From Escherichia phage phT4A, in the sequence record NC_055712.1: a DNA stretch of 64,000 nucleotides; one strand, given 5' to 3'. Below, in pieces: positions 1-54,069 of this stretch. The notes below the pieces were generated by a model. It made no database searches and was not told where the DNA came from. It saw nothing but the letters and a program-made list of their open reading frames with translations. Each line of letters opens with the position of its first letter. Within the stretch, counting starts at the first letter, position 1. The translations under genes were made by a program, and so were the position numbers.

Positions 1-203
1 ACAAGTTTGTTGTTTCCTGGGTACATCTTGACTAATAACAGATGCGCAATATAATGTTGACGCGCTGTAAGATTAACCAAATTATCATCAGAATCTGTTC
101 CACCTATGCACTTAGGTATGATATGGTGTGATTCTGTATATCCATCATACTGCGTTTGTTTAGCATGTTCTATGATAGAGTTATAAATTTTGTTATAGTT
201 CAT
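1..203 (-). CDS. HNH homing endonuclease (Mob-like), N-terminal part; gene continues past window start
   Basis: Reverse ATG at 203; translation MNYNKIYNSIIEHAKQTQYDGYTESHHIIPKCIGGTDSDDNLVNLTARQHYIAHL carries an HNH core; open to position 1. Confidence 0.6.
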   Translation of the reverse strand, partial: MNYNKIYNSIIEHAKQTQYDGYTESHHIIPKCIGGTDSDDNLVNLTARQHYIAHLLLVKMYPGNNKL

Positions 204-259
204 AAACATATCTCTTGTTTGATGGGCCGTTAGATACCCCTATTTAAGAGGATGAAATT

Positions 260-454
260 ATGTTATTAGAAAAATCTTTTGAATTAGAAACCGCTCCGGA
301 AATAGAGCGGTTTTATCTCCACAACAATTTTCTTGAAGAAAAACATATAGTTACTATGAAAGATGTTGAAGAAGCATTCAAAGATAACCCTATAGAGTTG
401 ACGCGAATCAAGAACAACAAAAGTTCTGTTTGGTTCCTCGAAAAAATCTATTGA
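260..454 (+). CDS. hypothetical protein
   Basis: ORF only; SD-like GAGGATG upstream. Confidence 0.3.
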   Translation: MLLEKSFELETAPEIERFYLHNNFLEEKHIVTMKDVEEAFKDNPIELTRIKNNKSSVWFLEKIY

Positions 455-480
455 CCGAAATCCATAAATACAGTAAAGTA

Positions 481-515
481 GCCCATGTAACGAAACGTGG
501 GCTTTGTTTTTATTT
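481..515 (+). terminator. rho-independent terminator
   Basis: Hairpin GCCCATGT-aacgaa-ACGTGGGC followed by TTTGTTTTTATTT. Confidence 0.6.
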
Positions 516-527
516 GAGGAACAATAA

Positions 528-2237: not shown

Positions 2238-2253
2238 TCAAATGAACTATAAT

Positions 2254-2284
2254 GGGAACTGTTAACGCAGTTCCCTTTTTATTT
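2254..2284 (+). terminator. rho-independent terminator
   Basis: Hairpin GGGAACTG-ttaacg-CAGTTCCC followed by TTTTTATTT. Confidence 0.5.
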
Positions 2285-2296
2285 GAGGAAAATATT

Positions 2297-2587
2297 ATGA
2301 GTTGTCCAACATGGTTACGTTTGGAAAATCTGAAAGAAGGTACACAAAAACGGATTTATATTAATCTTGGTTGGGTTCCTCCTACCGATTTTCAAATGGC
2401 TGAGATTTTAATCAATGCTGTTAAAGAAGTAAGCGACACTTACGAATGGGAAAGGCTCTATTTTCCTTTGATTGGTTTGTATATGACGCGAAATAAATTT
2501 GAAGAAATGAAACTTGCTGTTATTCGCGCTACGATTATTAATTCCCAACAAAGATTTACTTTGAAAAATGCATGGAGTTCTGAATGA
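2297..2587 (+). CDS. hypothetical protein
   Basis: ORF; start moved to ATG after the terminator, AGGAA SD upstream. Confidence 0.35.
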   Translation: MSCPTWLRLENLKEGTQKRIYINLGWVPPTDFQMAEILINAVKEVSDTYEWERLYFPLIGLYMTRNKFEEMKLAVIRATIINSQQRFTLKNAWSSE

Positions 2588-3643: not shown

Positions 3644-3644
3644 A

Positions 3645-4559: not shown

Positions 4560-6054
4560 ATGAATGACATTAAAGTAGTAGTAAAATCCTCTGGTGTACG
4601 CCAGCCGTTTGACAAAGAAAAAATATACAAAGTGCTCAAGTGGGCCTGTGATGGTCATAATATCGATGTTCGTGCATTCCTTGAAAATGTATTAGAACTG
4701 ATCCGCGATGGTATGACTACCAAACAAATTCAACGTATCGCTATCAAGTATGCAGCAGATCATATTTCTGTTAAAGAACCGGATTGGCAATACGTAGCAT
4801 CGAATCTTGAAATGTTTGCATTGCGTAAAGACGTTTACGGTCAGTTCGATCCTATCCCGTTCTACGATCACATCGTTAAAATGGTTGAAGCGGGGAAATA
4901 CGATAAAGAGATCCTGGAAAAATACAGCAAGCAAGATATTCAAGTTTTCGAACGTGCAATTGATCATGATAAGGATTTTGAATTTTCGTATGCTGGTTCC
5001 CAACAGTTAATCGGGAAATATCTGGTTCAGGATCGCGATACTGGCGAAATCTTTGAAACCCCTCAGTATGCGTTTATGCTTATTGCGATGTGTCTGCATC
5101 AGGAAGAAACTGGGTTAGCACAGGTTACGCATATCGTTGATTTTTATAACGCAATTTCCGATCGCAAACTGTCTCTACCGACTCCAATTATGGCGGGTGT
5201 ACGTACTCCTACGCGCCAGTTCTCCAGTTGTGTAGTAATTGAATCGGGTGATTCTCTTGGTTCTCTTAACGCTGTAACCTCTGCGATCGTGAAGTATATT
5301 TCACAACGTGCTGGTATTGGGGTTAACGCGGGACATATTCGCGCAATGGGTTCTAAAATCCGTGGTGGTGAAGCTGTTCATACTGGTGTGATTCCTTTCT
5401 GGAAACATATTCAAACCGCTGTTAAATCCTGTTCACAGGGTGGCGTTCGTGGTGGTGCTGCAACACTGTATTATCCTTTCTGGCATCTGGAAGTTGAAAA
5501 CCTTCTGGTGTTGAAGAACAACAAAGGCGTAGAAGAAAACCGCGTTCGTCATCTTGATTATGGTGTACAGCTTAACCAGTTGATGTATAAACGCTTAATG
5601 AATCGTGATTACATTACGCTGTTTAGTCCGGATGTTGCTAACGATCGTCTGTATGATCTGTTCTATGAAGCTGATCAGACTGCATTTGAAGAACTGTATG
5701 AAAGCCTGGAAAAAGATCCAACTGTTCGTAAGAAACGCATCAAAGCGGTTGACCTGTTCCAACTTTTAGCACAGGAACGCGCACAGACAGGACGCAAATA
5801 CATTTTCAACACTCATCACGTCAACCAACAGGGTAGTTTTACGGTTCCTGTCCGTATGTCTAACCTGTGTTGTGAGATTGCGATCCCAACGTCGCCGCTG
5901 GATGACGATGATAAAATGGCTGGTGAAATCGGATTGTGTACGCTAATGGCTATCGTTCTGGATAACGCTGATATCAGCGAATTCCCGAAACTCACGCGTA
6001 TTGCAGTACGTGCGCTTGTATAACCTGTTGGATTACCGTAACTACCCTGTAAAA
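4560..6054 (+). CDS. nrdA: ribonucleotide reductase alpha subunit, N-terminal two thirds; frameshifted near 6018 and truncated by assembly gap
   Basis: ATP-cone N-terminus; active-site SNLCCEIAIP; frame 0 stops at 6021-6023 after AVRALV, but the +1 frame continues LYNLLDYRNYPVK, matching class I NrdA (AVRALDALLDYQDYP). Confidence 0.85.
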
Positions 6055-6154
6055 NNNNNNNNNNNNNNNNNNNNNNNNNNNNNNNNNNNNNNNNNNNNNN
6101 NNNNNNNNNNNNNNNNNNNNNNNNNNNNNNNNNNNNNNNNNNNNNNNNNNNNNN
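6055..6154. other. assembly gap (100 N)
   Basis: Run of exactly 100 N. Confidence 0.95.
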
Positions 6155-6571: not shown

Positions 6572-7729
6572 ATGACAAAGGCACAAACTAAAATTATCAA
6601 TACCCTTTACAAACAACTCATGCAGTTGTGTGGTGAATCCGAAACATTTTTCTTCGTTGATCAAGTAACCGTGATGGGTACACCTGTTCGAATCTTTAAC
6701 TATCGCATGGCCTCATATACAGACTGGCTAAAGCCTGGTGCTCTGGAATGTCGCGGTATCATGTTTGAAATGGATGGAGATACCCCCGTATCAATCATCA
6801 GCCGCCCTATGGAGAAGTTTTTTAACTATGCCGAGGTAAAGGCATGGGAAGCGCTTAACGAGTCTCCTATTGAATTAGGCGAAGTTTTAGACGTGATGAT
6901 TAAAGAAGATGGTTCCTTGATCTCAACTTTCCTTGACGGTGGATTTCTGGCGGTCAAGTCTAAAGGTTCGGTTAAATCAGAACAAGCTATGGATGCGCAC
7001 AGCGTGTTAATGGCAAATCGTGAATTGCTGACCCGCTTAACTGAGATCGCTAAAGAAAACTATACGGTGAACATGGAATACGTTTCCCCGAAAAACCGTA
7101 TTGTCGTTGGTTATGATTCTCCTGATCTGCGTATCCTGAACGTTCGTCACAACATCACGGGTGAATACATCCCTTATGATGAACTCTTTGCTGACGCGCT
7201 GTTACGTGCGTATCTGGTTAAGCGTGAGAATATCGAAGTACTGGATCTGGATGCATTCGCAAAAGAAGCATATCAGAATGAAGGATTCGAAGGCTATGTT
7301 GTTCTGACAACGAAAGGGTTTGTAAAAATCAAAACAAACTGGTATGTCAATCTGCATCGCACAAAAGATAGCATCACCAACAATAAGGATCTTTTCCTAA
7401 ATATTGTTGAGAATACGGTCGATGACCTGAAACAGCTATTCAGTTCGGATCTGGTCTCTCTGAAAAAGATTGACGATTTCGAAAAACTTTTCCTTGATAG
7501 TCTCAATCGTTTGAGTGCAAAAGCGTTCAAAGCTATTGAAGATAATAAAGGGAAATCGCGTAAAGATTTTGCTATCAGTCTAAGCGCGGATTTGTCAAAC
7601 GACGGTCGGATCATCTTCGGGCCTCTTATGAAGTACTTCGAAGAAACCGATCCACAAAAACTGGTCGATCGCATCATTGAAATGATGGTTAAAAATTACG
7701 ATCAGTTCATTCCTGGAGAGTACAAGTGA
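6572..7729 (+). CDS. rnlA: RNA ligase 1
   Basis: Collinear with recalled T4 Rnl1: ALECRGIMFEMDG, SRPMEKFFN, KEDGSL (lysine nucleotidyl motif), EGYVV, C-terminal FIPGEY. Confidence 0.85.
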   Translation: MTKAQTKIINTLYKQLMQLCGESETFFFVDQVTVMGTPVRIFNYRMASYTDWLKPGALECRGIMFEMDGDTPVSIISRPMEKFFNYAEVKAWEALNESPIELGEVLDVMIKEDGSLISTFLDGGFLAVKSKGSVKSEQAMDAHSVLMANRELLTRLTEIAKENYTVNMEYVSPKNRIVVGYDSPDLRILNVRHNITGEYIPYDELFADALLRAYLVKRENIEVLDLDAFAKEAYQNEGFEGYVVLTTKGFVKIKTNWYVNLHRTKDSITNNKDLFLNIVENTVDDLKQLFSSDLVSLKKIDDFEKLFLDSLNRLSAKAFKAIEDNKGKSRKDFAISLSADLSNDGRIIFGPLMKYFEETDPQKLVDRIIEMMVKNYDQFIPGEYK

Positions 7730-8262
7730 AATCATTTGGCGCATATAGCCGAACGATAGAACAAGAAAAAGCAGGGATTGATTCCCTGCTTTCTTTCGTT
7801 GATGTTTTCCCCGAAACTGGAAAAATTTACTGGAATGATAAAGCATATCATAAAAGTAAGAGAGGAAAAGAAGCGGGTTCTATTGTTTGTGAAGAATACC
7901 CTTATACGAAAATAAAGTATGCTGGGAAAAATTACATGAGGCATAGAATAATATTTTACTATGTTCATGGTTACTTACCAATCATAGTTGATCATAAAAA
8001 TGGTCTTGATTTTGGTGATTGTATTGATAATCTTCAAGAATCCGATCCCGTTCATAATATATTGAAGAAAAACAAAACCAGAAAATCTAAAACTACCACA
8101 TCAAAAGGGGTTGACTATCGTTCTTCTCGTGGAAAATATAGAGCACAAATACGGATTAATGGTAAAACGAAACATATAGGATATTATGATACAGAAGAAC
8201 AGGCGTCTATCGCATATGAGGAAACTTTGAATGAATATCAAAAGCATCTTGGGTATGATTAA
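7726..8262 (+). CDS. HNH-AP2 homing endonuclease (paralog 1 of 4)
   Basis: GTG start overlapping rnlA stop; HNH core IVDHKNG...DNLQ; C-terminal AP2-like GV..RSSRGKYRAQI..NGK..HIGYYDTEEQAS.AYEE. Confidence 0.8.
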   Translation: MKSFGAYSRTIEQEKAGIDSLLSFVDVFPETGKIYWNDKAYHKSKRGKEAGSIVCEEYPYTKIKYAGKNYMRHRIIFYYVHGYLPIIVDHKNGLDFGDCIDNLQESDPVHNILKKNKTRKSKTTTSKGVDYRSSRGKYRAQIRINGKTKHIGYYDTEEQASIAYEETLNEYQKHLGYD

Positions 8263-9034: not shown

Positions 9035-9421
9035 ATGAATCTGTTTATGACTATTGGCGTTCCGGGTAGTGGAAAAACTACCTGGGCGCATGAGAAAGCC
9101 CGTGAATTGGGTAATACTGTTACGATCTCTCGCGATGATCTGCGTAGCTCTTTGTATAATGCNNNNNNNNNNNNNNNNNNNNNNNNNNNNNNNNNNNNNN
9201 NNNNNNNNNNNNNNNNNNNNNNNNNNNNNNNNNNNNNNNNNNNNNNNNNNNNNNNNNNNNNNGATACCAGGACAGATTTTGAAGTAAAAGAAGAAATTTT
9301 GTTTGACAAGATTTTAGATAAGTATTATCCTGTTATTGCAGTGGACGATAGAGACACTCCGGTCGGGATGTGGCGAGCAAACGGGATTCCGTGCTTACAA
9401 GTCGATTATGGTGATTTCTGA
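9035..9421 (+). CDS. pseT: polynucleotide 5'-kinase/3'-phosphatase, interior replaced by assembly gap
   Basis: N-terminal P-loop MTIGVPGSGKTTWA and C-terminal DTR.D..VKEEI...DDR...VGMWR..G..C.QV..GDF both match recalled T4 Pnk; 100-N gap at 9163-9262 replaces most of the gene. Confidence 0.8.
   Translation: MNLFMTIGVPGSGKTTWAHEKARELGNTVTISRDDLRSSLYNXXXXXXXXXXXXXXXXXXXXXXXXXXXXXXXXXXDTRTDFEVKEEILFDKILDKYYPVIAVDDRDTPVGMWRANGIPCLQVDYGDF
9163..9262. other. assembly gap (100 N) inside pnk
   Basis: Run of exactly 100 N. Confidence 0.95.
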
Positions 9422-14338: not shown

Positions 14339-14737
14339 AATTTTTCACCGACTCAGTGAAAGAAATTAACAGCGCTCTGGAACAATGGAACACTCGCTGT
14401 GATGTATCCATTAAATCAGAGTACGAAACAACTTATGATCGTTATGATCAGGCCCGTGGTTTGCACAATAACCCCCATGAGGTGGAAGTGTGAAATACTA
14501 CGGATTCAAAACGAGTCATTTTGGTAAAGCGTATCGTACAGAAAACATCGATCGCAAACGTCCGTACTATGATTCTTTAGTACGCGCGGGACGCAAACGC
14601 GCTCGCCAGGAAGGGAAGAAGGAAGCAGAAAATGAACTTTGATCAACCCATTGCAATGATAATCGGTGCTGTCCTGGGAATGCTTCTTTTGTTTGGCGGA
14701 ATCCCATTAACTGCATATATCATGAGGTTATTCTAAA

Positions 14738-15178
14738 ATGGACATCGGATCAGGTAGTCAGTATCCCTCATGCGCTTTAAGCAACTTTGCCCCGCATCCG
14801 TTTACGTTCGACGGGGTAGAATGCGCATCGATGGAGGGGCTTTTACAAAGCCTGAAATTCAGCAATCCAGACATGCAAGCGCATGTATGTACGCTGGTTG
14901 GTAAAGCCGCCAAGTTCAAAGGCAAGAAAAAGAAATGGTATCGCGATCAGACCTTGTACTGGAAAGGTACACCGATCCATCGCGAATCCGAAGCGTACCA
15001 GATTCTTATTGAAAATGCGTACAATGCTCTTTTCCTGAATGACGGGTTCCGCCGTGCGCTGGCAGCAACCGGAAAAAGTACCTTGACACATTCAATGGGG
15101 AAATCTCGTATGAACGAAACTATTCTGACAGAACGAGAATTTATTAGAAATTTGAACAGGTTGAGAAATTTGTTATGA
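14738..15178 (+). CDS. NADAR (YbiA/DUF1768)-like protein
   Basis: LSNFAPHPFTFDGVECASMEGLLQSLKF resembles the NADAR N-terminal signature of E. coli YbiA (FSNF..P..DG......EH.FQA.KF). Confidence 0.6.
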   Translation: MDIGSGSQYPSCALSNFAPHPFTFDGVECASMEGLLQSLKFSNPDMQAHVCTLVGKAAKFKGKKKKWYRDQTLYWKGTPIHRESEAYQILIENAYNALFLNDGFRRALAATGKSTLTHSMGKSRMNETILTEREFIRNLNRLRNLL

Positions 15179-15693
15179 AAAGCGCTGATAACCTAAAAAA
15201 AGAAATTGAAGGAATCAAGAAATTATTGCATTATATCGATGTTGATATAGAGACTGGAATATGTACTTGGAAAAGACCCAGAAAATCTATAAATGTTGGT
15301 GATGTTGCTGGATGTAAGAAAGAAAAATATCATGTTATTTGTTTCGATTATAGGTTGTATAGACGACACAGGATTGTGTTCTATTTTGCTAAAGGTTACT
15401 TACCTCAAGTAGTAGACCACATTCATGGTGTTGAACATGGCGACGGTATTGATAATTTACAAGAGGCATCGCAAAGACAAAACGTTATTAAAAAGAAAGG
15501 ACAGAAAAACAACAAAAGTGGTTATCGAGGGGTGTGTTGGTCGTCTCGTGCTGAAAAGTATCGAGCAACTATAGGTATTGATGGAAAACAAATACATTTA
15601 GGATATTTCGATACTCCAGAAGAAGCAAGTAAAGCATATCATCAAAAAGCGAAAGAAACTTTTGGTGATTTTTATAATCCATTGGTTAAATGA
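15175..15693 (+). CDS. HNH-AP2 homing endonuclease (paralog 2 of 4)
   Basis: ATGA overlap with NADAR stop; VVDHIHG...DNLQ HNH core; AP2-like YRGVCWSSRAEKYRATIGIDGKQIHLGYFDTPEEASKAY. Confidence 0.8.
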   Translation: MKSADNLKKEIEGIKKLLHYIDVDIETGICTWKRPRKSINVGDVAGCKKEKYHVICFDYRLYRRHRIVFYFAKGYLPQVVDHIHGVEHGDGIDNLQEASQRQNVIKKKGQKNNKSGYRGVCWSSRAEKYRATIGIDGKQIHLGYFDTPEEASKAYHQKAKETFGDFYNPLVK

Positions 15694-15965
15694 GATCTGT
15701 TATGAGTGAAAAAGAAAGAGTAGAATGCGTGTTCCTGTTCAAAGGCGCGATTAATCCATTAGCGTTACTGTATGCGCAACATGCATTACGTTCAACGTTG
15801 ATTCAGAGTGTTATCTATAAAGCAGGTGTGTATTATGTTACCATCGGCGCAAATAACATGGTTGTTATTGAATCCTATGTTAAGGAATGTGCATCAAACG
15901 GCGTTGTCTTTGATAAAGTCGATTTTGATGCAGGGGTAGATGCTGTTTATATGTATAAGGGTTGA
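15690..15965 (+). CDS. hypothetical protein
   Basis: ORF only. Confidence 0.35.
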   Translation: MRSVMSEKERVECVFLFKGAINPLALLYAQHALRSTLIQSVIYKAGVYYVTIGANNMVVIESYVKECASNGVVFDKVDFDAGVDAVYMYKG

Positions 15966-15966
15966 T

Positions 15967-16188
15967 ATGAGTTACGTAGTTTATTTCGATTGTTCGGATC
16001 TCGATCCGTTCGTGCTTCAACAGGCAAAGAAATATCATCAAGATGTCGTTGGCATTGGTGTAACAAATGATGATATGTTGTGCATCGAATTTGAATATTA
16101 TCGGACATTTGAGCGTGAACAATTCCTGGGTGAATTGAATGCATTCAAAAGTACCCTTTTCTTTGATCGTTATGAGGTTATATCTTGA
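15967..16188 (+). CDS. hypothetical protein
   Basis: ORF; start set at MSYVVYF. Confidence 0.3.
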   Translation: MSYVVYFDCSDLDPFVLQQAKKYHQDVVGIGVTNDDMLCIEFEYYRTFEREQFLGELNAFKSTLFFDRYEVIS

Positions 16189-29912: not shown

Positions 29913-32129
29913 TTAGAGTTTGACTTCTTTTTCTTCCAGAACGATTGTGCAATCAAATTTCACATCTTTCCAGAATTCCGCTGCAACGATATCTGTTGCG
30001 GTAACGCTTACGCTGGTTTCTTCGAAATCCAGATCCGCAAACCATGCGTGTCCGACGACAATACCGTACATTACACGACTCAGGCGATTATTAAGGGCGC
30101 GAACCTCTTTAATAGTTTCCTTTGTCTGTTTATCAAGATACTCGATCAGGTCATTCTTGTCAAGCGCTTCGATCTCTTTAGATACGGTATCGTAAGCCCA
30201 CAGAATGATCAGGTCACCATTGTTGAGTTTCTTCTTACCTTCGGCGCGTTTTGCAACGGTAGCCGCAACAGCCGGAAGTGATGAAACGCCTTTGATTTTC
30301 ACGTTCAGTTCTTTCGACATGTAAACATCAGTCGATTCTGTGCGCTCAACCTTCGGAGAGAAGCCGTAATCACGGATCCCTTGCTCAGACAACCATTCAC
30401 CAGCCGCCTCGCCAAAACGCTGTTTAAGCCCTTCTGCGTTGCGTAAACCAATCGCGTTATCACGGAAGAACTTCATTACCTTCTGACGGCCTTTCAGGAT
30501 TTCCAGACGGACGTTATCAGCAACAAATTCCTTACCAGAAATACCGCGAGTCATCGAACGGTTAACCAGAGGCAGAGAGGTAAAGTCAACCAGTACAGAC
30601 ATACGGTCTTCACCAATTTTAGCCAGCGGTTTGATAGTCAGACCAGAAGCACGTAAGTTTTTCAGAGTCGGAATATCGGTTTCCAGCGGAAGTACCTTAA
30701 CGTTCACGATACCATCTTTAACAATGGTAAAGTTACGCACTTGTTTGGTTTCTACTTTTTCCGGTAATCCAAACTCTTTTTGTTTGCTTTCCGGAATGGT
30801 TACATAACCTTGCAGATCCGTATTGATGGAAATGTTCGGACGGGAACTGTTACCCACCAGGTGTTTCACTGCAACTTTCGTTGTGGTTTGGGTAAATTCC
30901 GGTTTCCATACTTCATGCGCTACCAGTTGCGCCGCCAGTGCTTTACGTTCTTCCGGAGTAGAAGCGTTTGCAATCTGTTCTGACAGTTTATCCAGAGTAT
31001 CATCATCTTTCTGGACAGTCTGACGGCCTGTACGATTGTACGCCCAGTGTTCAGAAGACAGGTCGATCACTGTGTCGGTTTCTGCCAGCAGTTCGAGAGC
31101 ATCAACCAGAGTAAACGCGTTTTCATCAGGAACCATGTTGTAATCAACACCATCCATCAGACGTTTAGCCGGATCAACAACCGCTTCGGAGATCATATCT
31201 TTAGCGTTGGAATAATCCTGTTTGGTAAAGCAGTTATCGTATGCTTTAATCAGACGCACATCACCCAGCTTTTTCAGAACTTTCCATGCCAGATCTGGAT
31301 TCATGGTATGAAGCGCATGATACAGAACCACATACAGAACCTGTTCACCTTCTGCTGTTGCCGGATCGAAGCCGTCAACGTCATTGATCGCGTTTTCACC
31401 CAGCGCCCAAATGTTTTTGATATGTTCCGGAACCAGAACAACACCATTTGCAGCATTCAGGACATACACACGGCCTTCATCCAGGTAGATCGCATGGGTT
31501 GCATCGCCAACTTTGACTTCAACACGTGCGGAGGTTTGCGCGGTAATGATTTCATCAAATGCAGGTACATACGCATCAAACCCTTCAACGAATTTGTGTA
31601 ATGCGTTGGTTGCTTCCGCCATTTTTTCCAGCAGAGGACGGTTTACATAATAACCATATTCCAGGAAAGCAATGTTGTTAAACGTCAACGGCAGAGTAGA
31701 ACACGCTTTCAGGATATCATCAGTACGCCAGCAGTTATCATAACCATCAGTCAGGAAGATCAGACTGTTCAGATTGCCATTATCCGCTTGCAGATCGGTA
31801 GCGACTTCAACCGCCAGTTGCAGAGGTTCAACGAAGCCAGTACATCCGGTCGGACGCAGATAACGATCGATAGCATCATTGATTTTGCTCAGGTCGGATA
31901 CAGAGCTAACCTTTTCGCCAACGAATACAGAACCGAACTGACCACGGCTGGAGAAATACAGAATAGATACGGTATCATCCTGTTTAACCAGCGTTGCCAG
32001 GTTGTTTTTCAGGTGCTGACGAATGCGCGGGAGTTCGTTATACATCGATCCGGATACGTCACAAACAAAAACGTGGTTAGTCGGGGTTGGTTTGGCTACG
32101 GCGTTTTTGAATTCAATGTTAGTGATCAT
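29913..32129 (-). CDS. von Willebrand factor A (vWA) domain protein, 738 aa
   Basis: N-terminal VFVCDVSGSM matches the MIDAS DxSxS motif, with conserved T and D further into the fold (FLTDGYD). Confidence 0.65.
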   Translation of the reverse strand: MITNIEFKNAVAKPTPTNHVFVCDVSGSMYNELPRIRQHLKNNLATLVKQDDTVSILYFSSRGQFGSVFVGEKVSSVSDLSKINDAIDRYLRPTGCTGFVEPLQLAVEVATDLQADNGNLNSLIFLTDGYDNCWRTDDILKACSTLPLTFNNIAFLEYGYYVNRPLLEKMAEATNALHKFVEGFDAYVPAFDEIITAQTSARVEVKVGDATHAIYLDEGRVYVLNAANGVVLVPEHIKNIWALGENAINDVDGFDPATAEGEQVLYVVLYHALHTMNPDLAWKVLKKLGDVRLIKAYDNCFTKQDYSNAKDMISEAVVDPAKRLMDGVDYNMVPDENAFTLVDALELLAETDTVIDLSSEHWAYNRTGRQTVQKDDDTLDKLSEQIANASTPEERKALAAQLVAHEVWKPEFTQTTTKVAVKHLVGNSSRPNISINTDLQGYVTIPESKQKEFGLPEKVETKQVRNFTIVKDGIVNVKVLPLETDIPTLKNLRASGLTIKPLAKIGEDRMSVLVDFTSLPLVNRSMTRGISGKEFVADNVRLEILKGRQKVMKFFRDNAIGLRNAEGLKQRFGEAAGEWLSEQGIRDYGFSPKVERTESTDVYMSKELNVKIKGVSSLPAVAATVAKRAEGKKKLNNGDLIILWAYDTVSKEIEALDKNDLIEYLDKQTKETIKEVRALNNRLSRVMYGIVVGHAWFADLDFEETSVSVTATDIVAAEFWKDVKFDCTIVLEEKEVKL

Positions 32130-32972: not shown

Positions 32973-33211
32973 TATAATTTCTCCCACTCAAACGTTGTGA
33001 AATGTTTTCTTTCGTCATACCCAACAGTACAACAATGTGTTGGCTTTCCTGTGAATCCATCAAACACAGTTATACAATAGTAATGCAAAGATGGAAGCGG
33101 TGTATGCTTAATGTAGTTGATCGCGACGTTCAGGTCAACAGTAGAACATACACAATCAGACGTTTGATCAAAACGGCCATCAAAAATCAACTCAATGCTA
33201 TAGATGTTCAT
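32972..33211 (-). CDS. hypothetical protein
   Basis: ORF only. Confidence 0.3.
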   Translation of the reverse strand: MNIYSIELIFDGRFDQTSDCVCSTVDLNVAINYIKHTPLPSLHYYCITVFDGFTGKPTHCCTVGYDERKHFTTFEWEKL

Positions 33212-33500
33212 CTTTCACTTCCTTCATATTTTTCATAACTTCTTCAAAAGTTATAGGGTAAGGAGAAAACGTTATTTGATTAATATTTCTCGATTCCCAC
33301 CGAGTTCTATCTAGTTCTGAGTAGGATATTAACTTACTATTATCCCATACGCTAAAACGAATATTATCTATAGAACCAAGATATGAAAAACAATCATGGT
33401 TGTTTACTGCATCAATACAAACCTGTAGAGATTCAGATACACATATAATTTCGCCCGGTTCATAATCAAGCAATCTTTCTCCGACAAAAATCATAACCAC
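33198..33500 (-). CDS. hypothetical protein
   Basis: ORF only. Confidence 0.35.
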   Translation of the reverse strand: MVMIFVGERLLDYEPGEIICVSESLQVCIDAVNNHDCFSYLGSIDNIRFSVWDNSKLISYSELDRTRWESRNINQITFSPYPITFEEVMKNMKEVKDEHL

Positions 33501-33700
33501 CCCCTAACAATGCTAACCAGCAGTAAACCCAGGATCCAGAACACGGCAACCGCACAAATACGGGCCATTACTACATTTCCGCGACTAGTCCACTCCGCAC
33601 TAAGAAACAAGAGGACAAACGTTAACGCGTATAAAACCATTTCAATAACTTCGGTAATCATATAAACCCCACGAAAAAGCCCCTTTCGGGGCTTGATTAA

Positions 33701-33979
33701 TCAATGTCCGAACACACCACGAATAGACTCTGCGAATGCATACAGTTCAGGATTTTTAGCTTTCACTGTTTCGATTTGTTCCAGAATGTAATCTGGCTTG
33801 TATTTCGCACCGAACCAGCAGTAAGAGAAAGAGCGATCCCACATGAACACGTTATAGTATTCACCGTTGCGAACTTCAACCATCACATAACCAGGATTAG
33901 AACCCAGCGGATAATCTTTCAGAAGATTGAATTTCGCGCCAGCACCAGTACATCCGTTAAACAGGTCATTAAAAGTCAT
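33701..33979 (-). CDS. hypothetical protein
   Basis: ORF preceded by a GCCCC-TTTCG-GGGGC hairpin. Confidence 0.4.
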   Translation of the reverse strand: MTFNDLFNGCTGAGAKFNLLKDYPLGSNPGYVMVEVRNGEYYNVFMWDRSFSYCWFGAKYKPDYILEQIETVKAKNPELYAFAESIRGVFGH

Positions 33980-34037
33980 GGTATGTTCCTTTTGTCAGTT
34001 TCGTTTCAACAAGGTCACTATACTATTCTTCGTTAGC

Positions 34038-34571
34038 CTATGCAAGATTTAATTTAGCAAATTCTCCAAAATGTTTTATCGCTTCCTGGTCGTATGCTTT
34101 TGCAGCCTCTAACTCATCACTATAAGAACCGATATGCTTAACCTTACCATCAACCATTATCTGTGCAATGTAACGTATTCCGGTTGGTTGATTGCGTACA
34201 CATACACCCTTGAATATGCTGGTTCCTTCCTTTCGCCGTTTCCTGTTCTGAGAGTTGCGGGATTGGTTCGCTTCGCGCAAGTTATCAATCCCGTCACCAG
34301 CCTCAACACCATTTTTGTGATCAATCACATCAGGTAGTTTTCCGGTCGCAACGTAGTAGATGATTCGATGGCGTAGATACCCTTTGCTTTTGAAATAAAC
34401 GCGTGTATATCCTCCTTTGATCTTCGAACCAACTTCCTTTCCGATCAAGTCGGAACGTTTATGCGATGTTCGTATAATCTTTCCTGTGTGGACATCAACA
34501 GAAACAGTTTTGAGGAATTCATCAATTCCTCTCTGTTCTTCTTCAACTGTTCTTAATCCATTATGTGACAT
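34038..34571 (-). CDS. HNH-AP2 homing endonuclease (paralog 3 of 4)
   Basis: VIDHKNG...DNLREANQ HNH core; AP2-like FKGVCVRNQPTGIRYIAQIMVDGKVKHIGSYSDELEAAKAYD; start overlaps the 3' end of the methyltransferase gene by 19 nt. Confidence 0.8.
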   Translation of the reverse strand: MSHNGLRTVEEEQRGIDEFLKTVSVDVHTGKIIRTSHKRSDLIGKEVGSKIKGGYTRVYFKSKGYLRHRIIYYVATGKLPDVIDHKNGVEAGDGIDNLREANQSRNSQNRKRRKEGTSIFKGVCVRNQPTGIRYIAQIMVDGKVKHIGSYSDELEAAKAYDQEAIKHFGEFAKLNLA

Positions 34572-35476
34572 AACGCCTTCTTAATTTGTTTTGCTATGGC
34601 TTCAATCACTGGGATGGAAACTGAATTCCCAGCCTGTTTGTAAGCCTGTATTTTGCTTTCAGGGATGATAAACGAATCCGGAAACCCTTGTAACCTAAAA
34701 CATTCTCGCGGGCTTAATCTTCTAGGGTTCTTACCTTCCTGTAATACCAGACATTGAACACCGTCCTTTCCATATTGGGCTGTTATCGTCCCAGTACACA
34801 CAGAATCCACCATAACGGCCTGATAACCAAACCCCTTGCCGTTTGCCTTGTTTCGTTCTTTACGCTCTCTAAAGCCCTTCCAGGCACGATCTGATATGGT
34901 GTATTGATCATTATCCGGTTCGAGAATGTCACCGACCCTTGTTGGGGTACGTGGAGGAACAGGAAAACTAAAGAACACTGGATCGCGAAAGCAGACAATA
35001 AACACACGCTCTCTTCGTTGAGGCAATCCAAAATCTTTTGTATTCATTACCTGATAATGGATATCGTATCCTTCGTCCTGTAACAGCCTGTAGATGGTTT
35101 TAAACGTGTTTCCCTTGTCATGGGTTAATAGCTGGGGAACATTCTCAAAGAACAGCACAGAGGGCTTTTTAGCCCGTATAATGCGGAGTATTTCAAAGAT
35201 GATAGTACCGCGAGGATCTAACATGCCCTGTTTTAAACCTGCTTTACTGAACGCCTGACAAGGAAACCCAGCTAACAGGATATCATGATCAGGCACATCA
35301 TTTTCATCAATGGCGAATATATCACCCTGAATATTTTCATCGCCCCAGTTATCAGCATATGTTTGTTGTGCATGTTTATCGATTTCAGACGTTAAAAGGC
35401 ATTCGACCCCGCCGAATGCCTTATCGAAACCGAGCCTCACGCCACCAACACCAGCGCAAAGGTCAATTATTTTCAT
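34553..35476 (-). CDS. DNA (cytosine-5)-methyltransferase
   Basis: C5-MTase motifs: I DLCAGVGG, IV GFPCQAFS, VI ENV, QxRxR-like QRRER. Confidence 0.85.
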   Translation of the reverse strand: MKIIDLCAGVGGVRLGFDKAFGGVECLLTSEIDKHAQQTYADNWGDENIQGDIFAIDENDVPDHDILLAGFPCQAFSKAGLKQGMLDPRGTIIFEILRIIRAKKPSVLFFENVPQLLTHDKGNTFKTIYRLLQDEGYDIHYQVMNTKDFGLPQRRERVFIVCFRDPVFFSFPVPPRTPTRVGDILEPDNDQYTISDRAWKGFRERKERNKANGKGFGYQAVMVDSVCTGTITAQYGKDGVQCLVLQEGKNPRRLSPRECFRLQGFPDSFIIPESKIQAYKQAGNSVSIPVIEAIAKQIKKALCHIMD

Positions 35477-35975: not shown

Positions 35976-36940
35976 TTGTAGTACCTCACAACATGTTCAG
36001 AATACACACGTTCAATGAAATCATTCCAGAAATCGCGATCAACTTCTTTCGGATAACCAGATACAGCCGCCAGCTTTTCAACTTCACACATCGTTGATTC
36101 TAGCGCCTCTTGTACGGTTGCGAAAGGAACACCGCCAGCTTTAACCATTTTCAAAAATGCGCTATCCGGAAGAGGATACACAATATCACCTTCTTTGAAA
36201 ATCTGGATCAATTGCATACCACCGCGCAACGCATGAGAAAGAGCTTTCCAGTCGATCCCGTTGTTGGCTTCTGCTTGCCGTGCGCGTTCCCCGTATTCAT
36301 CCCAGAGTTTATACACGGATTTCTTCATTTCCGCTACAGTGATCGTAGACTGGAATTTACGCCCCAGAACTTCATAAAATTCCTGACAACCTGATTTCAG
36401 TGTTTTGTCTGTAACGAATCGACAAAACTCATTGGTCGGGAATCGGTTAGAAATCTCACCAACTTTGATGCGCTTGCCGTAATTAGATTCATCCACGTTA
36501 CCCAGCAATGATGTACCATACCAGTAATCGGGAATCATTTGTAACACATCAACAACTTCACGCAGTGCCGCCAGGCGAGAACCTTTAACACCATACTTCG
36601 CCGCTTGCTTACGAACATAACCAAACAGGCCAGTTAATTCCGTAGTGTAGAAGCGCGAACGGTTAGCGCGGAGATATTGCCAGATATCAGAGTTAGCGAT
36701 CAGCTTGCTATCATCTGCATGAAGCATATCAATCGCCACGGTATCACCATCACATGCGAGGCTAATAAACTTTTGCAGACTGTAAATCTGACGATCTACG
36801 TCATTAACATCGTTCTTTGAGTTTTTATCACCAGTTGATGTATCGATAGACTTCTTCGCAGTGCCTAACAGGATTTCGCGAGGATGAGGGAGATAGATCC
36901 CTTTGTAGTCTTTATCGCTTGTTGGTGTTTCCAGTCCGTA
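35972..36940 (-). CDS. nucleotidyltransferase-fold protein, 5' end lost in assembly gap
   Basis: Reading frame is open from the gap edge: YGLETPTSDKDYKGIYLP... is a Pol-beta-type NTase signature (SDxD after a Gly-rich strand). Confidence 0.4.
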   Translation of the reverse strand, partial: YGLETPTSDKDYKGIYLPHPREILLGTAKKSIDTSTGDKNSKNDVNDVDRQIYSLQKFISLACDGDTVAIDMLHADDSKLIANSDIWQYLRANRSRFYTTELTGLFGYVRKQAAKYGVKGSRLAALREVVDVLQMIPDYWYGTSLLGNVDESNYGKRIKVGEISNRFPTNEFCRFVTDKTLKSGCQEFYEVLGRKFQSTITVAEMKKSVYKLWDEYGERARQAEANNGIDWKALSHALRGGMQLIQIFKEGDIVYPLPDSAFLKMVKAGGVPFATVQEALESTMCEVEKLAAVSGYPKEVDRDFWNDFIERVYSEHVVRYYK

Positions 36941-37040
36941 NNNNNNNNNNNNNNNNNNNNNNNNNNNNNNNNNNNNNNNNNNNNNNNNNNNNNNNNNNNN
37001 NNNNNNNNNNNNNNNNNNNNNNNNNNNNNNNNNNNNNNNN
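36941..37040. other. assembly gap (100 N)
   Basis: Run of exactly 100 N. Confidence 0.95.
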
Positions 37041-47702: not shown

Positions 47703-48227
47703 TTATGTGGTTTCGTTAAAAAATGCACCGAAAACCTCTTTTGCTTTCCGGTTATAAACGGATTTTGCTTCTTCTGGAGTGTTATAGTACCCCAAAAATT
47801 TTCTTTTTCCATCTATGTTTATCTGCGCTTTGTACTTCCCATTGGCTTTATGATAAGAAACACCTTTCAACCCTGTACTACTGTTTGAGTTACATTTCTT
47901 TTTCATCGCATTTTGCTGGTTCGTCGCTTTCTGTAAATTTCTTGCTGTATCTCCATTCTCAACACCATATACATGATCTACGATAGGAGGAAGATAACCA
48001 TTCTCAACGTAAAACACTATTCGGTGTCGCAAATACATAGAACCTTTAAAATGAATTTGGGAATACTCGTTTTTGCTTCCGGCTTCACTTCCAGGAAACA
48101 TAGGGCCGCGCTGAACTTTCCAATACACTTTACCTGTAGATGTATCAACATCTACAAAATTCAGAAGAGATTCGATCCCTTGAATCTCTTCATGTATGGT
48201 TCTTGATGAATAGCCATGACTTTTCAT
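47703..48227 (-). CDS. HNH-AP2 homing endonuclease (paralog 4 of 4)
   Basis: IVDHVYG...NLQKATNQ HNH core; AP2-like LKGVSYHKANGKYKAQINIDGKRKFLGYYNTPEEAKSVY; start overlaps upstream stop. Confidence 0.75.
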   Translation of the reverse strand: MKSHGYSSRTIHEEIQGIESLLNFVDVDTSTGKVYWKVQRGPMFPGSEAGSKNEYSQIHFKGSMYLRHRIVFYVENGYLPPIVDHVYGVENGDTARNLQKATNQQNAMKKKCNSNSSTGLKGVSYHKANGKYKAQINIDGKRKFLGYYNTPEEAKSVYNRKAKEVFGAFFNETT

Positions 48228-49179: not shown

Positions 49180-49590
49180 TTAATAATCGTAAAGATCACC
49201 GAAACATTCGTCATACTCGCGTTTACGTTCAATTTGCTCGTTTCTACGATCTTCCATATATGGAGGAAGACGGTTTTCATTGACTTCATCAATGTAAGCC
49301 TGTGCATCCTCTTTTGTTAGAAAGAATGCATGGAAATTGTACCCGTTGTACCCGTTGTACCCGTTCATACTACGATCTTCAAGAGAGAATTCTGTGTGAC
49401 AGTCCCAGTCTTTGTACAGGGTGATACATTTAGCAAACAGCCCAATACCGCGATGAATGTATGGGAATCCAGTAACAATCATCTTGCTACCCATTTCCGC
49501 ATTTTCTCCGTTCACACAGAATACTTCATACATGATCGCGCCTGGTTTAACATCTTTCTTAACAGCACGTTTTTCAAAAGCACTTTTCAT
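49180..49590 (-). CDS. hypothetical protein with YNG tandem repeat
   Basis: ORF containing the 3 x 9-bp repeat. Confidence 0.4.
   Translation of the reverse strand: MKSAFEKRAVKKDVKPGAIMYEVFCVNGENAEMGSKMIVTGFPYIHRGIGLFAKCITLYKDWDCHTEFSLEDRSMNGYNGYNGYNFHAFFLTKEDAQAYIDEVNENRLPPYMEDRRNEQIERKREYDECFGDLYDY
49338..49364. repeat. perfect tandem repeat, 3 x TGTACCCGT
   Basis: Three exact 9-bp copies at 49338-49364 inside the CDS, in frame. Confidence 0.9.
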
Positions 49591-50601: not shown

Positions 50602-50602
50602 G

Positions 50603-51214: not shown

Positions 51215-51562
51215 TCATGATATACCCTCTTCTTTCAGCACTTCCCAGATCAGTTTATCAAGGTGCATCAGGTTCCACATAACCGAATCATAAGAACCCA
51301 GTGAGCGGGAGTAAATCACTCCCCATGAACGATAACTTTTCTGGAATGCTTCTGCACTATCTACATCATACGGCATATCATCACCGGATGCAATCAAAAG
51401 TTTAAGGATCATCAGACTGTTCAGAAGTTTTGAACTAGCGTCTTGTGCTTGTACTTTTGCACAATAATTTTCAATAATCGCTTTTGCCTTTGGTTCGGTG
51501 ATGCGTCCATTTTTGCATCGCTCTTTGTACACATACATAAGTTCATCGATTATTTCTTGCAT
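51215..51562 (-). CDS. hypothetical protein
   Basis: ORF only. Confidence 0.35.
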   Translation of the reverse strand: MQEIIDELMYVYKERCKNGRITEPKAKAIIENYCAKVQAQDASSKLLNSLMILKLLIASGDDMPYDVDSAEAFQKSYRSWGVIYSRSLGSYDSVMWNLMHLDKLIWEVLKEEGIS

Positions 51563-51896
51563 ACATTCTTTCCTTCTGTTCTGTGCTCATGCCATACAAC
51601 TGAGAGCGTATACGGTCTTGTATACGACGCGTTTCGTTTTGCATCAGTTGGTTTGAAAGAATCAAATCGACCACCGCGCCGCGAACTTTCCATAGATAAT
51701 CAATCATCGCCATATCTTCATCAGTATGGAAACCCTTCGCATCACATTCATAGATAATGCTTTGCCTTTCCGCCATTGCCATTTCTGCTGTCGCCGGAGT
51801 AGCCAGAGAATATTCATACTTCTCGATCAATGATTCCAGTGTACGTGGTTTTACGGGAATGTCAACAGTTATTGGACGAATCATATACAGCCCCAC
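51543..51896 (-). CDS. hypothetical protein
   Basis: ORF only. Confidence 0.35.
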   Translation of the reverse strand: MGLYMIRPITVDIPVKPRTLESLIEKYEYSLATPATAEMAMAERQSIIYECDAKGFHTDEDMAMIDYLWKVRGAVVDLILSNQLMQNETRRIQDRIRSQLYGMSTEQKERMYARNNR

Positions 51897-52177
51897 TTAT
51901 CACCATCTGCTTTAATCTGTAAATTAGCCAGGAATGAAAACATAATATCACAGTTGCTTTCGATTAGATAGCGATATTTTAATACGGTACTTACCTCTTC
52001 CGGTTCTACCGTAGTGACCTTAATGTCTTTAGCACAAAGATCATAATCGTTACAGTACCCGTCAATATCCATAAGCGTTTTGTTTTCATCTGGATATAAT
52101 TCCAGCAAATACGCATCTTCATCAGTTACCAGCGCAACTATCCGGTTGCGCCTTGTGTTATAGGTTAAGATCTTCAT
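51881..52177 (-). CDS. hypothetical protein
   Basis: ORF only. Confidence 0.35.
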   Translation of the reverse strand: MKILTYNTRRNRIVALVTDEDAYLLELYPDENKTLMDIDGYCNDYDLCAKDIKVTTVEPEEVSTVLKYRYLIESNCDIMFSFLANLQIKADGDKWGCI

Positions 52178-53328
52178 TTCAATTCCACCGCGTATACATC
52201 CAATTCAGGGGCTTTGTGTACGCGCATATCTTTACCACATACAGCATAAGCCGGACAGTTACGGCAACCATTATGATCCTTATTACCGATCAATTCCTGA
52301 CGGAATTTCTTAGTTTTCGGATGTTCCCAGATATCTTTGATAAAGTCACTGGCTTCCAGTACGTTAAGCCCTTCTGACCATCCACCCTCGACCCAACGTT
52401 CAGTAAAGGAACAAGGGAAGAATTCACCCTTCTCGTTGATGTACGAGCTAAACATAGTTGCTTCGCAATCTTCCGCGTACTGTTTGTATTGTTCAAAATT
52501 TTCATGCCCTTCCATAGCCTCTACAAAGGCCGGAGCGGAACAGGAATCAAAACCGAACCCTACACCGGATTCAAGGCAATAATCTACCAGCGCTTTATAC
52601 TGCTCGCGTGTAACGGTATCCCAGTTCTTCCCACGACCTTTTTGTTTCAGACCCAGGAATACGATCGCGTTAACTTGTTTCAAGCGCGGATCATTCTTTA
52701 CAGCATCAACCACGTTAAACGCGTCATCATAGGTTTTAGAGCTAACCATGAAATGAAGGTTGATTTGCTGTTGTCCGGCTTCTGCAAGATTAGCCACTGA
52801 ATTAAACGCTACATCGAATCCAGCATGTTTGTATACTGATACCGCAACAGCCCCAGCAACAGCCGCTAAACGCGCTGCAACGTCTTTTGATACATCAGCA
52901 ATGGTAAGGTTCGGCACAATGCCTTTAGAACGCGCATAGGCCATCATATCAAACATATCAGGGTTTGTTTGTCCCTGTGCATCAGCACCGAGGGCGCATT
53001 GAGTCAGCCAGGGCATTTTGTCGATGATTTTGGTGAAGGTGGCAAGATCCATGTTGAACCCGTTCGGGTTATTGGACTTGTAGCAGAACCCGCAGAGTTT
53101 ACCCGCTGGCCCGTTGCATTTGGTAGTGATCTCGATATCGAGGATAAAAGGAAAATGACTATAAATAGGATCGTCAGCAGGAGTTTTTCCCCAAGTCATC
53201 ATATGACCTGTTTTCATATCAAAATTAAAATTAACCTCTTCGGAACGATAGATTTTCTTTCCTTTCGCTTCCAGTAGAAGTCCAACAGGCGTTTTGATAT
53301 GTTTGGCGTTTACTTTAACGTGTCTCAT
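52174..53328 (-). CDS. cysteine-rich putative Fe-S protein (radical SAM/SPASM-like, non-canonical spacing)
   Basis: Cys triad C-x7-C-x2-C (TKCNGPAGKLCGFCY) and C-terminal CRNCPAYAVC (CxxCx5C); start set at MRHVKV. Confidence 0.35.
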   Translation of the reverse strand: MRHVKVNAKHIKTPVGLLLEAKGKKIYRSEEVNFNFDMKTGHMMTWGKTPADDPIYSHFPFILDIEITTKCNGPAGKLCGFCYKSNNPNGFNMDLATFTKIIDKMPWLTQCALGADAQGQTNPDMFDMMAYARSKGIVPNLTIADVSKDVAARLAAVAGAVAVSVYKHAGFDVAFNSVANLAEAGQQQINLHFMVSSKTYDDAFNVVDAVKNDPRLKQVNAIVFLGLKQKGRGKNWDTVTREQYKALVDYCLESGVGFGFDSCSAPAFVEAMEGHENFEQYKQYAEDCEATMFSSYINEKGEFFPCSFTERWVEGGWSEGLNVLEASDFIKDIWEHPKTKKFRQELIGNKDHNGCRNCPAYAVCGKDMRVHKAPELDVYAVELK

Positions 53329-53340
53329 AGGAACCTCATA

Positions 53341-54069
53341 ATGTATTACGTTTACAGAATCACGAATGTTATAGAGAACAAGCACTATTATGGATCAAGA
53401 AAACCTAAAAAGTCAATGCTTGCTTCCGACGATTTAGGGAAACACTATTTCAGTAGTTCCCGTGATAGTCATTTCATCCAGGATCAGAAGGAAAATCCAG
53501 GACACTACAAATATAAAATAATCGTATCTGGGTTGTCAAGGGAAAAAGCGATGAAACTTGAGAAAAGGTTACACGAAATCTACAAGGTGGACAAGAACCC
53601 ACATTTTTATAACAAACACATACACAACAGCATTGATTTTTCATGTACGCCAGAAACAGGAAAGAAGATTTCTCAAACACATCAGAAATACGCAGCAAAG
53701 AAAATCTCAGAATCCCATAAAAGGCGATTCAAGGAAGGTATTGCATCACACAAAGGAGAGAACAACCCACGATACAACGACCATCGGTCTTATGAAGAGA
53801 TACACGGAGAGGAAAGAGCGGAAGCTATACGTAAAGCGCAATCTGAATCAAGAAGTGGAAAAGGCAATTCCCGCGCGGTTATGTGGAGATTTACTTCCCC
53901 TACTGGAGAAGAATTTTTAGTTGAAGGAGAATGTAAAAAGTTTTGCAAAGACAGAAATATTTCCATGCGCAAACTGAAAACATATTTTGGTGAAGTCATC
54001 ACAACATGTGATAAACCCTACGATATCTCTAAGAATACCGTAGGATGGAAATTAGAAAAGATTATTTGA
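53341..54069 (+). CDS. GIY-YIG homing endonuclease (Seg-like)
   Basis: N-terminal YYVYRITNVIENKHYYGSRK is a GIY-YIG motif; NUMOD-like segments (ETGKKISQTHQ, GENNPRYN); sole plus-strand gene within a minus-strand array. Confidence 0.8.
   Translation: MYYVYRITNVIENKHYYGSRKPKKSMLASDDLGKHYFSSSRDSHFIQDQKENPGHYKYKIIVSGLSREKAMKLEKRLHEIYKVDKNPHFYNKHIHNSIDFSCTPETGKKISQTHQKYAAKKISESHKRRFKEGIASHKGENNPRYNDHRSYEEIHGEERAEAIRKAQSESRSGKGNSRAVMWRFTSPTGEEFLVEGECKKFCKDRNISMRKLKTYFGEVITTCDKPYDISKNTVGWKLEKII

Follow-up and report, generated by a model that had tools for sequence, protein, structure and literature searches.

Six probable free-standing homing endonuclease genes and their insertion sites in 64 kb of Escherichia phage phT4A

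The 64,000-nucleotide stretch of Escherichia phage phT4A DNA analysed here (sequence record NC_055712.1; the whole stretch is hereafter called the window) carries six genes that are very probably mobile, free-standing homing endonuclease genes (HEGs) accumulated in a Slopekvirus-like phage. They comprise one MobE-like HNH gene, four HNH-AP2 genes and one Seg-like GIY-YIG gene. This interpretation is carried by the identity and fold of the genes, by their polymorphic presence among relatives and the clean empty sites found there, by the polarity of one insertion (HEG4), by the divergence of adjoining host sequence and by the conservation of another gene (HEG5) across genera. An earlier sequence-only reading had listed six HEGs in this DNA. 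It is confirmed in part: all of the open reading frames (ORFs) exist and the homing endonuclease interpretation is supported, with minor corrections, one being that the first gene lies on the minus strand at positions 1–209.

The relatives used for comparison are close. By megablast the first 25 kb of the window matches more than 100 Klebsiella myophages at 95–99% identity, the closest being vB_KpnM_Prick1_ER44 (hereafter Prick1) at 98.8%, with Miro, Matisse, PMBT1, KP15 and KP27 among the others. These phages belong to Slopekvirus, in the RB43-type 'pseudo-T-even' branch of Straboviridae, and both Prick1 and Matisse are in unbroken synteny with all 64 kb.

The predicted nucleases

The six genes and the basis of each assignment are as follows.

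1–209, minus strand: HEG1, predicted MobE-like HNH free-standing HEG, first 69 codons (Pfam HNH, PHROG 655, identity with Prick1)
7726–8262, plus strand: HEG2, predicted HNH-AP2 gene (Pfam AP2 3e-8 and HNH_3 4e-5; PHROG 99 1e-44)
15175–15693, plus strand: HEG3, predicted HNH-AP2 gene (Pfam HNH_3 7e-6 and AP2 5e-7; AlphaFold, Foldseek)
34038–34571, minus strand: HEG4, predicted HNH-AP2 gene (Pfam HNH_3 4e-7; PHROG 99 4e-51)
47703–48227, minus strand: HEG5, predicted HNH-AP2 gene (Pfam AP2 9e-5 and HNH_3 2e-4; PHROG 99 1e-54)
53341–54069, plus strand: HEG6, predicted Seg-like GIY-YIG gene (PHROG 314, residues, AlphaFold, Foldseek; a longer ORF runs from 53299)

HEG2 to HEG5 had been described as paralogs, and their proteins are indeed 39–48% identical in alignments that extend over the full length and include the C-terminal AP2 part. 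Thirty-nine positions are invariant in the four proteins, including D89, H90, N102 and N111 as well as several in the C-terminal domain. Across 53 HNH-AP2 homologs the catalytic D-H...N...N residues (there D81, H82, N94 and N103) are at least 90% conserved. Pfam HNH_3 is recognized in all four proteins (E-values from 4e-7 to 2e-4, two copies lying above the gathering threshold), and all four match PHROG 99, 'HNH endonuclease', at 1e-44 to 2e-57. Pfam AP2 is found in three of them (3e-8, 5e-7 and 9e-5), with the gathering score exceeded by HEG2 only; the HEG4 protein gave no AP2 match at E<0.01. When the 53-homolog profile was compared with PDB sequences, its C-terminal third matched WRI1 (2e-13), TEM1 (5e-8), ERF096 (3e-6) and AtERF1 (9e-5), and its N-terminal part matched I-HmuI (PDB 1u3e, E=8e-10).

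Structure prediction agrees. The AlphaFold model of the HEG3 protein has a mean predicted local distance difference test score (pLDDT) of 94.6, and its C-terminus consists of three strands (residues 120–123, 128–135 and 138–145) followed by a helix (148–166) at pLDDT 90–98, an AP2 fold as the earlier reading anticipated. Foldseek ranked I-HmuI at the top, followed by the AP2 domains of TEM1, WRI1 and AtERF1 (probability 1.00, root-mean-square deviation 1.3–2.0 Å, 48–59 columns). The four paralogs are thus predicted HNH / His-Me finger endonucleases fused to a predicted AP2/ERF DNA-binding domain. With I-HmuI, from the Bacillus phage SPO1, they share the N-terminal half in both profile and fold, namely the beta-beta-alpha-metal motif and the preceding beta-hairpin region; however, I-HmuI is intron-encoded and its C-terminal modules are not AP2, whereas the genes in the window are free-standing. 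Their C-terminal 55–60 residues match plant AP2/ERF domains (AtERF1, 1gcc; WRI1, 7wq5; TEM1, 7et4) by profile and predicted fold. In plants the AP2 domain is joined to transcription-factor regions, whereas here it is fused to a predicted nuclease in a virus.

HEG6 matches PHROG 314, 'homing endonuclease', at 3e-24 and contains the motifs Y-V-Y-R-I-T-N ... H-Y-Y-G. Y5, R6, I7, Y16, Y17, G18, E74 and N91 are invariant in 54 homologs and R20 is conserved in at least 90%; E74 and N91 we take to correspond to E75 and N90 of I-TevI. The AlphaFold model has a pLDDT of 86, with residues 1–95 at 94–97 and a linker of low confidence, and the top three Foldseek matches are I-TevI catalytic domains (probability 0.93–0.96, target TM-score 0.57–0.60, E about 0.1). 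The GIY-YIG family profile gave no match to PDB sequences at E<=1. Many homologs carry PF07460 NUMOD3, while HEG6 itself is without a NUMOD match at E<=1. The Seg-like GIY-YIG assignment of the earlier reading therefore stands as regards the predicted fold, which resembles that of Seg proteins and I-TevI, the catalytic residues and PHROG 314, but the threshold of the curated Pfam model is not reached.

HEG1 is cut by the left edge of the window. Its minus-strand translation reads MFMNYNKIYN...HHIIPK...N, the remainder lying beyond that edge; the full gene encodes 241 aa in relatives, and over the 209 nt present there is 100% identity with the start of a Prick1 coding sequence for a 241-aa 'homing endonuclease'. 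The Pfam HNH match is borderline (E=3e-4; 21.2 bits against a cut-off of 21.4 bits). A full-length relative matches PHROG 655 at 9e-63; it is 64% identical to the 'MobE-like endonuclease' of Lw1, which occupies the same locus adjoining gp46, and about 35% identical to HEGs adjoining nrdA in Tequatrovirus-like phages. HEG1 is on these grounds a predicted Mob-like HNH homing endonuclease, its likeness to MobE being judged through the annotated Lw1 protein. Matisse has a different HEG at this site, a plus-strand 160-aa HNH_3+AP2 gene (Matisse 36247–36729): two unrelated HEGs alternate here.

Occupied and empty sites in related phages

All six HEGs are separate ORFs, with no intron or intein, and the flanking genes are uninterrupted. 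Site occupancy was assessed by querying each HEG together with 300-bp flanks, HEG-plus records giving approximately 100% query coverage and empty ones approximately 50%. In every such search the number of places was close to the number of records, which implies one fixed site per HEG. HEG1 is present at its site in 47 of 113 related records, HEG2 in 28 of 160, HEG3 in 19 of 169, HEG4 in 19 of 163, HEG5 in 61 of 134 and HEG6 in 17 of 106. Occupancy per site thus ranges from 11 to 46%, and the genes are far from universal in relatives; the remaining records mostly have a clean empty site or a different HEG. The difference in length between occupied and empty sites equals that of the insert, 517–527 bp for HEG2, HEG3 and HEG4 and 481 bp for HEG5. 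HEG6-minus genomes have about 400 bp of other sequence in that position, including a 67-aa ORF.

The high load claimed for this DNA is borne out. With the six HEG bodies as query, 209 places were found in 110 records, a mean of 1.9 per record, and the maximum among the 60 matches listed is five (VAC66 and Kiwi_ER50). Prick1 has five of the six at the same sites. The window, with all six, shows the fullest occupancy of these sites among the sampled genomes, a high load for the lineage, and three N gaps make six a lower bound. For Matisse, five HEGs, two of them of the AP2 type, were reported in the whole 176-kb genome (PMC4591321). Hmmsearch with both family profiles recovered the five known genes and no additional HNH-AP2 or GIY-YIG members among 709 stop-to-stop ORFs of at least 40 aa, and Pfam detected no HEG domains in 20 other mid-size ORFs of the window.

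Sequence next to the insertions is diverged. Host genes adjoining HEGs are 77–89% identical to HEG-minus alleles, against 97.7% overall, in the comparison with Matisse, which is without HEG2, HEG3, HEG4 and HEG6. By our count, approximately 12 of some 17 low-identity 300-bp windows in that comparison fall within 1.2 kb of these four genes, and for all four the identity of the flanks follows HEG status. The features on which the junction analysis turns are listed below.

8245–8257, plus strand: 13-nt copy, CATCTTGGGTATG, of spanin codons 5–9 of the HEG-minus allele (compared with the Matisse empty site)
14491–15178, plus strand: HEG3-linked allele of a T4 gp30.3-family gene (Pfam Phage_30_3, E=6e-55; 79% identical to the HEG-minus Slopekvirus allele)
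34023–34046, minus strand: relic of the original 3' end of a methyltransferase (MTase) gene (junction comparison with empty sites)
34574–34800, minus strand: MTase 3' coding tract adjoining HEG4 (about 80% identical to HEG-minus alleles)
53146–54076: HEG6 cassette relative to Matisse, made up of a divergent radical-SAM 5' end (53146–53328, minus strand) and HEG6
53160–53167, plus strand: TATAAATA, within the cassette and 174 nt before the HEG6 ATG (matches the T4 late-promoter consensus)

HEG4 reveals the direction of the change. Compared with Prick1 and Matisse, it is a precise 527-bp insert (34047–34573) located seven codons ahead of the original stop of a C5 cytosine MTase gene, whose tail reads ...KKALAQAKE* at the empty site and ...KKALCHIMD* when HEG4 is present. 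HEG4 takes the place of the last 6 codons of the MTase gene and is not in its frame. It had been described as starting on or within the MTase stop codon; instead, it starts 19 nt before the new stop, a 19-nt overlap, and the insert lies within the MTase 3' end. Downstream of HEG4 the relic reads CTT GCA TAG GCT AAC GAA GAA TAG, against CTT GCA CAG GCT AAA GAA TAA in empty sites, and the CAG-to-TAG change within it supplies the HEG4 stop codon. The presence of this relic downstream of HEG4 shows insertion into the MTase gene rather than deletion of a HEG. Matisse is 80.6% identical over 34501–34800, and the flanks are 89–96% identical in HEG4-minus records against 98–99.6% in HEG4-plus Klebsiella phages.

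HEG3 is a 513-bp insert (15179–15691) whose ATG shares ATGA, 4 nt, with the stop of the preceding gene. The sequence-only reading had this overlap right but named the preceding gene a NADAR gene; this gene (14738–15178, plus strand) belongs to Phage_30_3, and its weak NADAR match (E=0.069) makes a NADAR link at best distant. In empty sites the same ATGA joins the gp30.3-family gene straight to the downstream gene. Imperfect direct repeats of this target junction surround HEG3, GAGAAATTTGTTATGA at 15163–15178 and GAGATCTGTTATGA at 15692–15705. The gp30.3-family gene 5' of HEG3 is only 77–79% identical to Matisse over about 690 bp, and flank identity is 88–89.5% in HEG3-minus and 96.7–99.9% in HEG3-plus records among the matches listed. 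The sampled Pseudotevenvirus genomes were considered as donors of this allele and rejected: its identity with RB43 and EcRAM-01 is 82–83%, with Matisse 79%, and no donor was identified. On the other side of HEG3, a 495-bp tract with two small ORFs (15694–16188) is 99.0% identical to RB43, an E. coli phage of another genus, in surroundings that are 75–86% identical. The left edge of this tract is the exact HEG3 insertion point and its right edge coincides with an indel relative to Prick1.

The GTG start of HEG2 lies inside the rnlA stop, with GTGA (4 nt) in common, as had been noted, and is supported by the paralogs, which likewise begin MKS-. The insert (7730–8259) stands in place of a 13-bp spacer, and the 3' codons of HEG2 overlap a rebuilt i-spanin start. 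Just 5' of that start, within the HEG2 C-terminal codons, sits the 13-nt copy of spanin codons, for which the chance expectation is approximately 4e-5 by our own estimate, not computed by a tool. The spanin 5' end next to HEG2 is 88% identical to Matisse.

HEG5 occupies the place of a 55-bp hairpin-bearing intergenic spacer upstream of a PhoH-like gene, a site that is empty in PMBT1. Its body is 90–97% identical to the copy in Cronobacter phage GAP161, a Pseudotevenvirus, whereas the flanking genes are 67–82% identical, a profile that supports recent lateral spread of the HEG alone, of which it would be the expected outcome. HEG5 overlaps the upstream 152-aa gene by 1 nt (TAATG), so that all four HNH-AP2 genes, and not three as previously stated, overlap the gene before them. 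The idea that such overlaps are a mark of the HEGs was rejected: 42 of the 89 same-strand neighbour pairs in Prick1 overlap (47%; 19 by 4 nt and six by 1 nt), and start/stop overlap is the norm of gene packing in this genome.

HEG6 is, in agreement with the earlier account, the only supported plus-strand gene in a minus-strand array extending from about 27.2 to 64 kb; the plus-strand ORFs at 56926–57231 and 33704–34036 are regarded as spurious because minus-strand ORFs at these places match PHROGs. Its ATG (53341) is 12 nt from the divergent ATG (53328) of a radical-SAM/SPASM gene, the 'Fe-S-like' gene of that account, and 8 nt at its 3' end are shared with the next minus-strand ORF. At the position of the cassette Matisse has a 406-bp segment with the 67-aa ORF. 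Compared with Matisse, the N-terminal 60 residues of the radical-SAM protein, as far as the motif ILDIEITTKCNG, belong to a different allele, the 84-aa ORF downstream of HEG6 (54062–54316) is 73% identical, and the flanks on both sides are 73–91% identical. The late-promoter match TATAAATA at 53160–53167 is the sole plus-strand match among three in the window and is conserved in Prick1; its position upstream of HEG6 is suggestive of a candidate late promoter used by that gene. Sigma-70-like matches (11/12 and 10/12) at 53510–53539 and 53387–53416, both on the minus strand, lie in the 5' part of HEG6 and are directed into the radical-SAM gene. Such matches are no more numerous in the region than chance would give (five found, 3.9 expected).

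Probable homing and alternative explanations

If these genes are mobile HEGs, their spread would follow a familiar course. During co-infection a DNA-binding module would direct each enzyme to the HEG-minus allele, near the point at which its own gene is inserted; in the four paralogs this module would be AP2, in the GIY-YIG enzyme probably a set of NUMOD-type repeats. The enzyme would nick or cut this allele, and recombinational repair off the HEG-plus genome would copy the HEG together with adjoining host-gene sequence. It is proposed that the HEG-plus genome is protected because its site is disrupted or diverged. The tight packing of the HNH-AP2 genes in sense orientation, with overlaps of 1, 4, 4 and 19 nt, makes co-transcription with their neighbours most likely. 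Their translation would begin from Shine-Dalgarno-like sequences inside the 3' end of the upstream gene (GGAG, GAGA, AAGG and GGGT, 6–12 nt upstream of the starts), and the antisense HEG6 would probably be transcribed from its own T4-type late promoter.

A number of observations weigh against this account. The Foldseek E-values of the HEG3 and HEG6 models are modest (0.01–0.1), and HEG6 falls below the Pfam SegE_GIY-YIG threshold (E=0.62; 10.7 bits against a 25-bit cut-off). The T4 late-promoter motif is not enriched in the window (three found, 4.1 expected). RNA hairpins masking the ribosome-binding site, reported for some T4-family HEGs, were not found in 75-nt folds at the five complete HEG starts (z from –1.9 to +0.6). 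Literature searches found no paper characterizing an HNH-AP2 enzyme of a T4-like phage, and cleavage, target sites, mode of transfer and mode of expression are deduced from comparison. Lastly, HEG2 copies at the same site in EC-W2 and leE show ordinary inter-genus divergence (75%), as do HEG4 copies in EC-F1 and HMGUkp1 (83–85%), so that some of the presence/absence pattern may stem from long residence with subsequent loss.

Taken to its full extent, that last point leads to the explanation that the genes are ancestral residents being lost by deletion, with nucleases that now serve the phage by excluding competitors or degrading host DNA. The same-site copies of HEG2 and HEG4 in other genera are what it predicts, and all copies are intact and embedded in operons. 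It is nevertheless unlikely, as the MTase relic at HEG4 and the duplication of the target junction at HEG3 show insertion, and HEG5 is far better conserved across genera than its flanks. Deletions, moreover, would not generate exact in-frame empty sites with gene overlaps intact in more than 100 genomes, and flank alleles co-vary with the presence of the HEG. The co-variation, together with site specificity, also fits homing better than the notion that the HNH-AP2 proteins are mainly DNA-binding regulators or phage nickases, acting in transcription, replication or packaging, whose polymorphism is accessory-gene flux. In favour of that notion, plants and apicomplexans use AP2 as a transcription-factor domain, the genes run in the same direction as the host operons and are packed into them translationally, and the nearest HNH relative of solved structure, I-HmuI, nicks one strand. 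Yet the four paralogs do not differ in any HNH catalytic residue, the 53 homologs hardly do, and most relatives are without each gene, a dispensability that makes a regulatory role very improbable. It is scarcely credible that a chimeric or mis-scaffolded assembly of several phages has simulated the high load: although the window has three 100-N scaffold gaps and no database genome among the matches listed has all six genes, the maximum being five, every HEG junction is contiguous and 96–100% identical to complete published genomes, the synteny with Prick1 and Matisse is unbroken over 64 kb, and Prick1 alone has five of the six.

Within the homing interpretation, a further idea concerns the manner of entry. 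HNH-AP2 genes may create short target duplications that rebuild the gene junction, a step beyond classical double-strand-break repair; the pointers are the 14–16-nt direct repeats at HEG3 and the 13-nt spanin copy at HEG2, and we consider this a long shot. If it held in general, integration would include a transposon-like or template-switch step in which the translation signals of both neighbours are kept, and this would explain how HNH-AP2 HEGs colonize junctions of overlapping genes without cost. In a weaker version, the four paralogs might constitute a naturally occurring series of nucleases, each directed by its AP2 domain to a specificity of its own.

The proposed behaviour has well-known counterparts. 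In T4, the free-standing HEGs SegF, SegG and MobE, and SegH/Hef replacing mobC/mobE, are reportedly cases of intronless homing proven by experiment. Like them, the HEGs of the window, of which HEG1 is MobE-like, are ORFs between conserved genes, are polymorphic, have diverged flanks and include alternative HEGs at one site; in T4, however, homing was established experimentally, whereas here it is deduced from comparison. The patterns in the window agree with published accounts of intronless homing (PMC2993671) and with the report that nuclease genes lie where tracts exchanged between phages begin and end (Barth, Dunham and Seed 2023, PMC10448857). The sharp changes of identity at HEG insertion points described for those HEG islands are seen here too, in the gp30.3-family allele (79%) and the RB43-like 495-bp tract, but the islands exceed 10 kb and lie between two HEGs, whereas the present tracts are short, between a few hundred bp and about 1 kb.

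The HNH-AP2 class itself is not new. A 2006 paper already drew attention to AP2-HNH genes of RB49 and RB43 (PMC1524935), and in 2010 the class was tabulated with three members in RB43 and six in RB16, beside mob-like and seg-like genes and a total of 15 HEGs for T4 (PMC2993671, Table 5). The HNH-AP2 genes of RB43, RB16, RB49, KP15, Matisse and Miro have the same HNH_3+AP2 architecture (about 170–180 aa), belong to the same lineage and in several cases occupy the same sites; GAP161 has its copy annotated as similar to 'RB16 HNH(AP2) 1'. There is no difference in kind between the RB43-type genes and those of the window, where four occur within 64 kb and all six sites are occupied. Genes 99–100% identical to those of the window are already on deposit for Prick1, Matisse, Miro and other phages, where the annotation reads 'homing endonuclease' or 'HNH endonuclease'. 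As the class is published and the copies are deposited and annotated, the finding is already known; the literature also covers how abundant such genes are in RB43-type phages and how HEGs are linked to recombination boundaries. What is added here is descriptive, namely the fullest six-site occupancy among the sampled genomes, junctions at the nucleotide level and the co-variation of flanks.

For annotation, all six genes can be given the label of free-standing HEG, of the MobE-like HNH type for one, HNH-AP2 for four and GIY-YIG for the last. Among more than 100 near-identical Klebsiella phages, many of which are candidates for therapy, the main differences lie in these HEG cassettes and the adjoining host-gene alleles, and the set could be used for mapping HNH-AP2 target sites and for measuring marker exclusion in phage cocktails.

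Gene order, gaps and neighbouring genes

The window follows a T4-like order of frd, td, nrdA, (nrdB), denA, rnlA, spanins, pseT, cd, DNA ligase and baseplate genes, 3' of which lies the long minus-strand array of early genes. Exact runs of 100 Ns, scaffold gaps or masks, occur at 6055–6154, 9163–9262 and 36941–37040 and, compared with relatives, hide approximately 2.2, 0.6 and 0.9 kb, about 3.7 kb in total. In Prick1 and Matisse the first gap corresponds to about 2.2 kb with the 3' end of nrdA, nrdB, a small ORF and the 5' end of denA, the second to about 0.6 kb (the pseT region) and the third to about 0.9 kb (the nucleotidyltransferase region). The 487-aa ORF at 4560–6023 is nrdA truncated on account of the first gap.

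Some patches of low identity (73–88%) or without a match to Matisse and Prick1, at 33001–33600, 49201–49500 and 51564–52120, adjoin none of the six HEGs, and part of the mosaicism is therefore not HEG-linked.

Several other genes of the minus-strand array merit mention. A 193-aa protein encoded at 58159–58740 (minus strand) has a GmrSD_N (DUF262) domain (E=9e-19), and just downstream, at 57248–58162 (minus strand), is the gene for a 304-aa protein with no Pfam match that falls in PHROG 10932, of unknown function. Together the two may make up a phage-borne GmrSD-like nuclease in split form; Matisse has kept the pair, and Prick1 has other sequence there. At 29913–32129 (minus strand) lies the gene for a protein of 738 aa that has a von Willebrand factor A domain at its N-terminus (E=1.5e-6); every relative examined lists it as hypothetical. 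The product of 62204–62839 (minus strand), 'RNA ligase' in the annotation of relatives, matches the Pfam Acb1 anti-CBASS family at E=2e-47.

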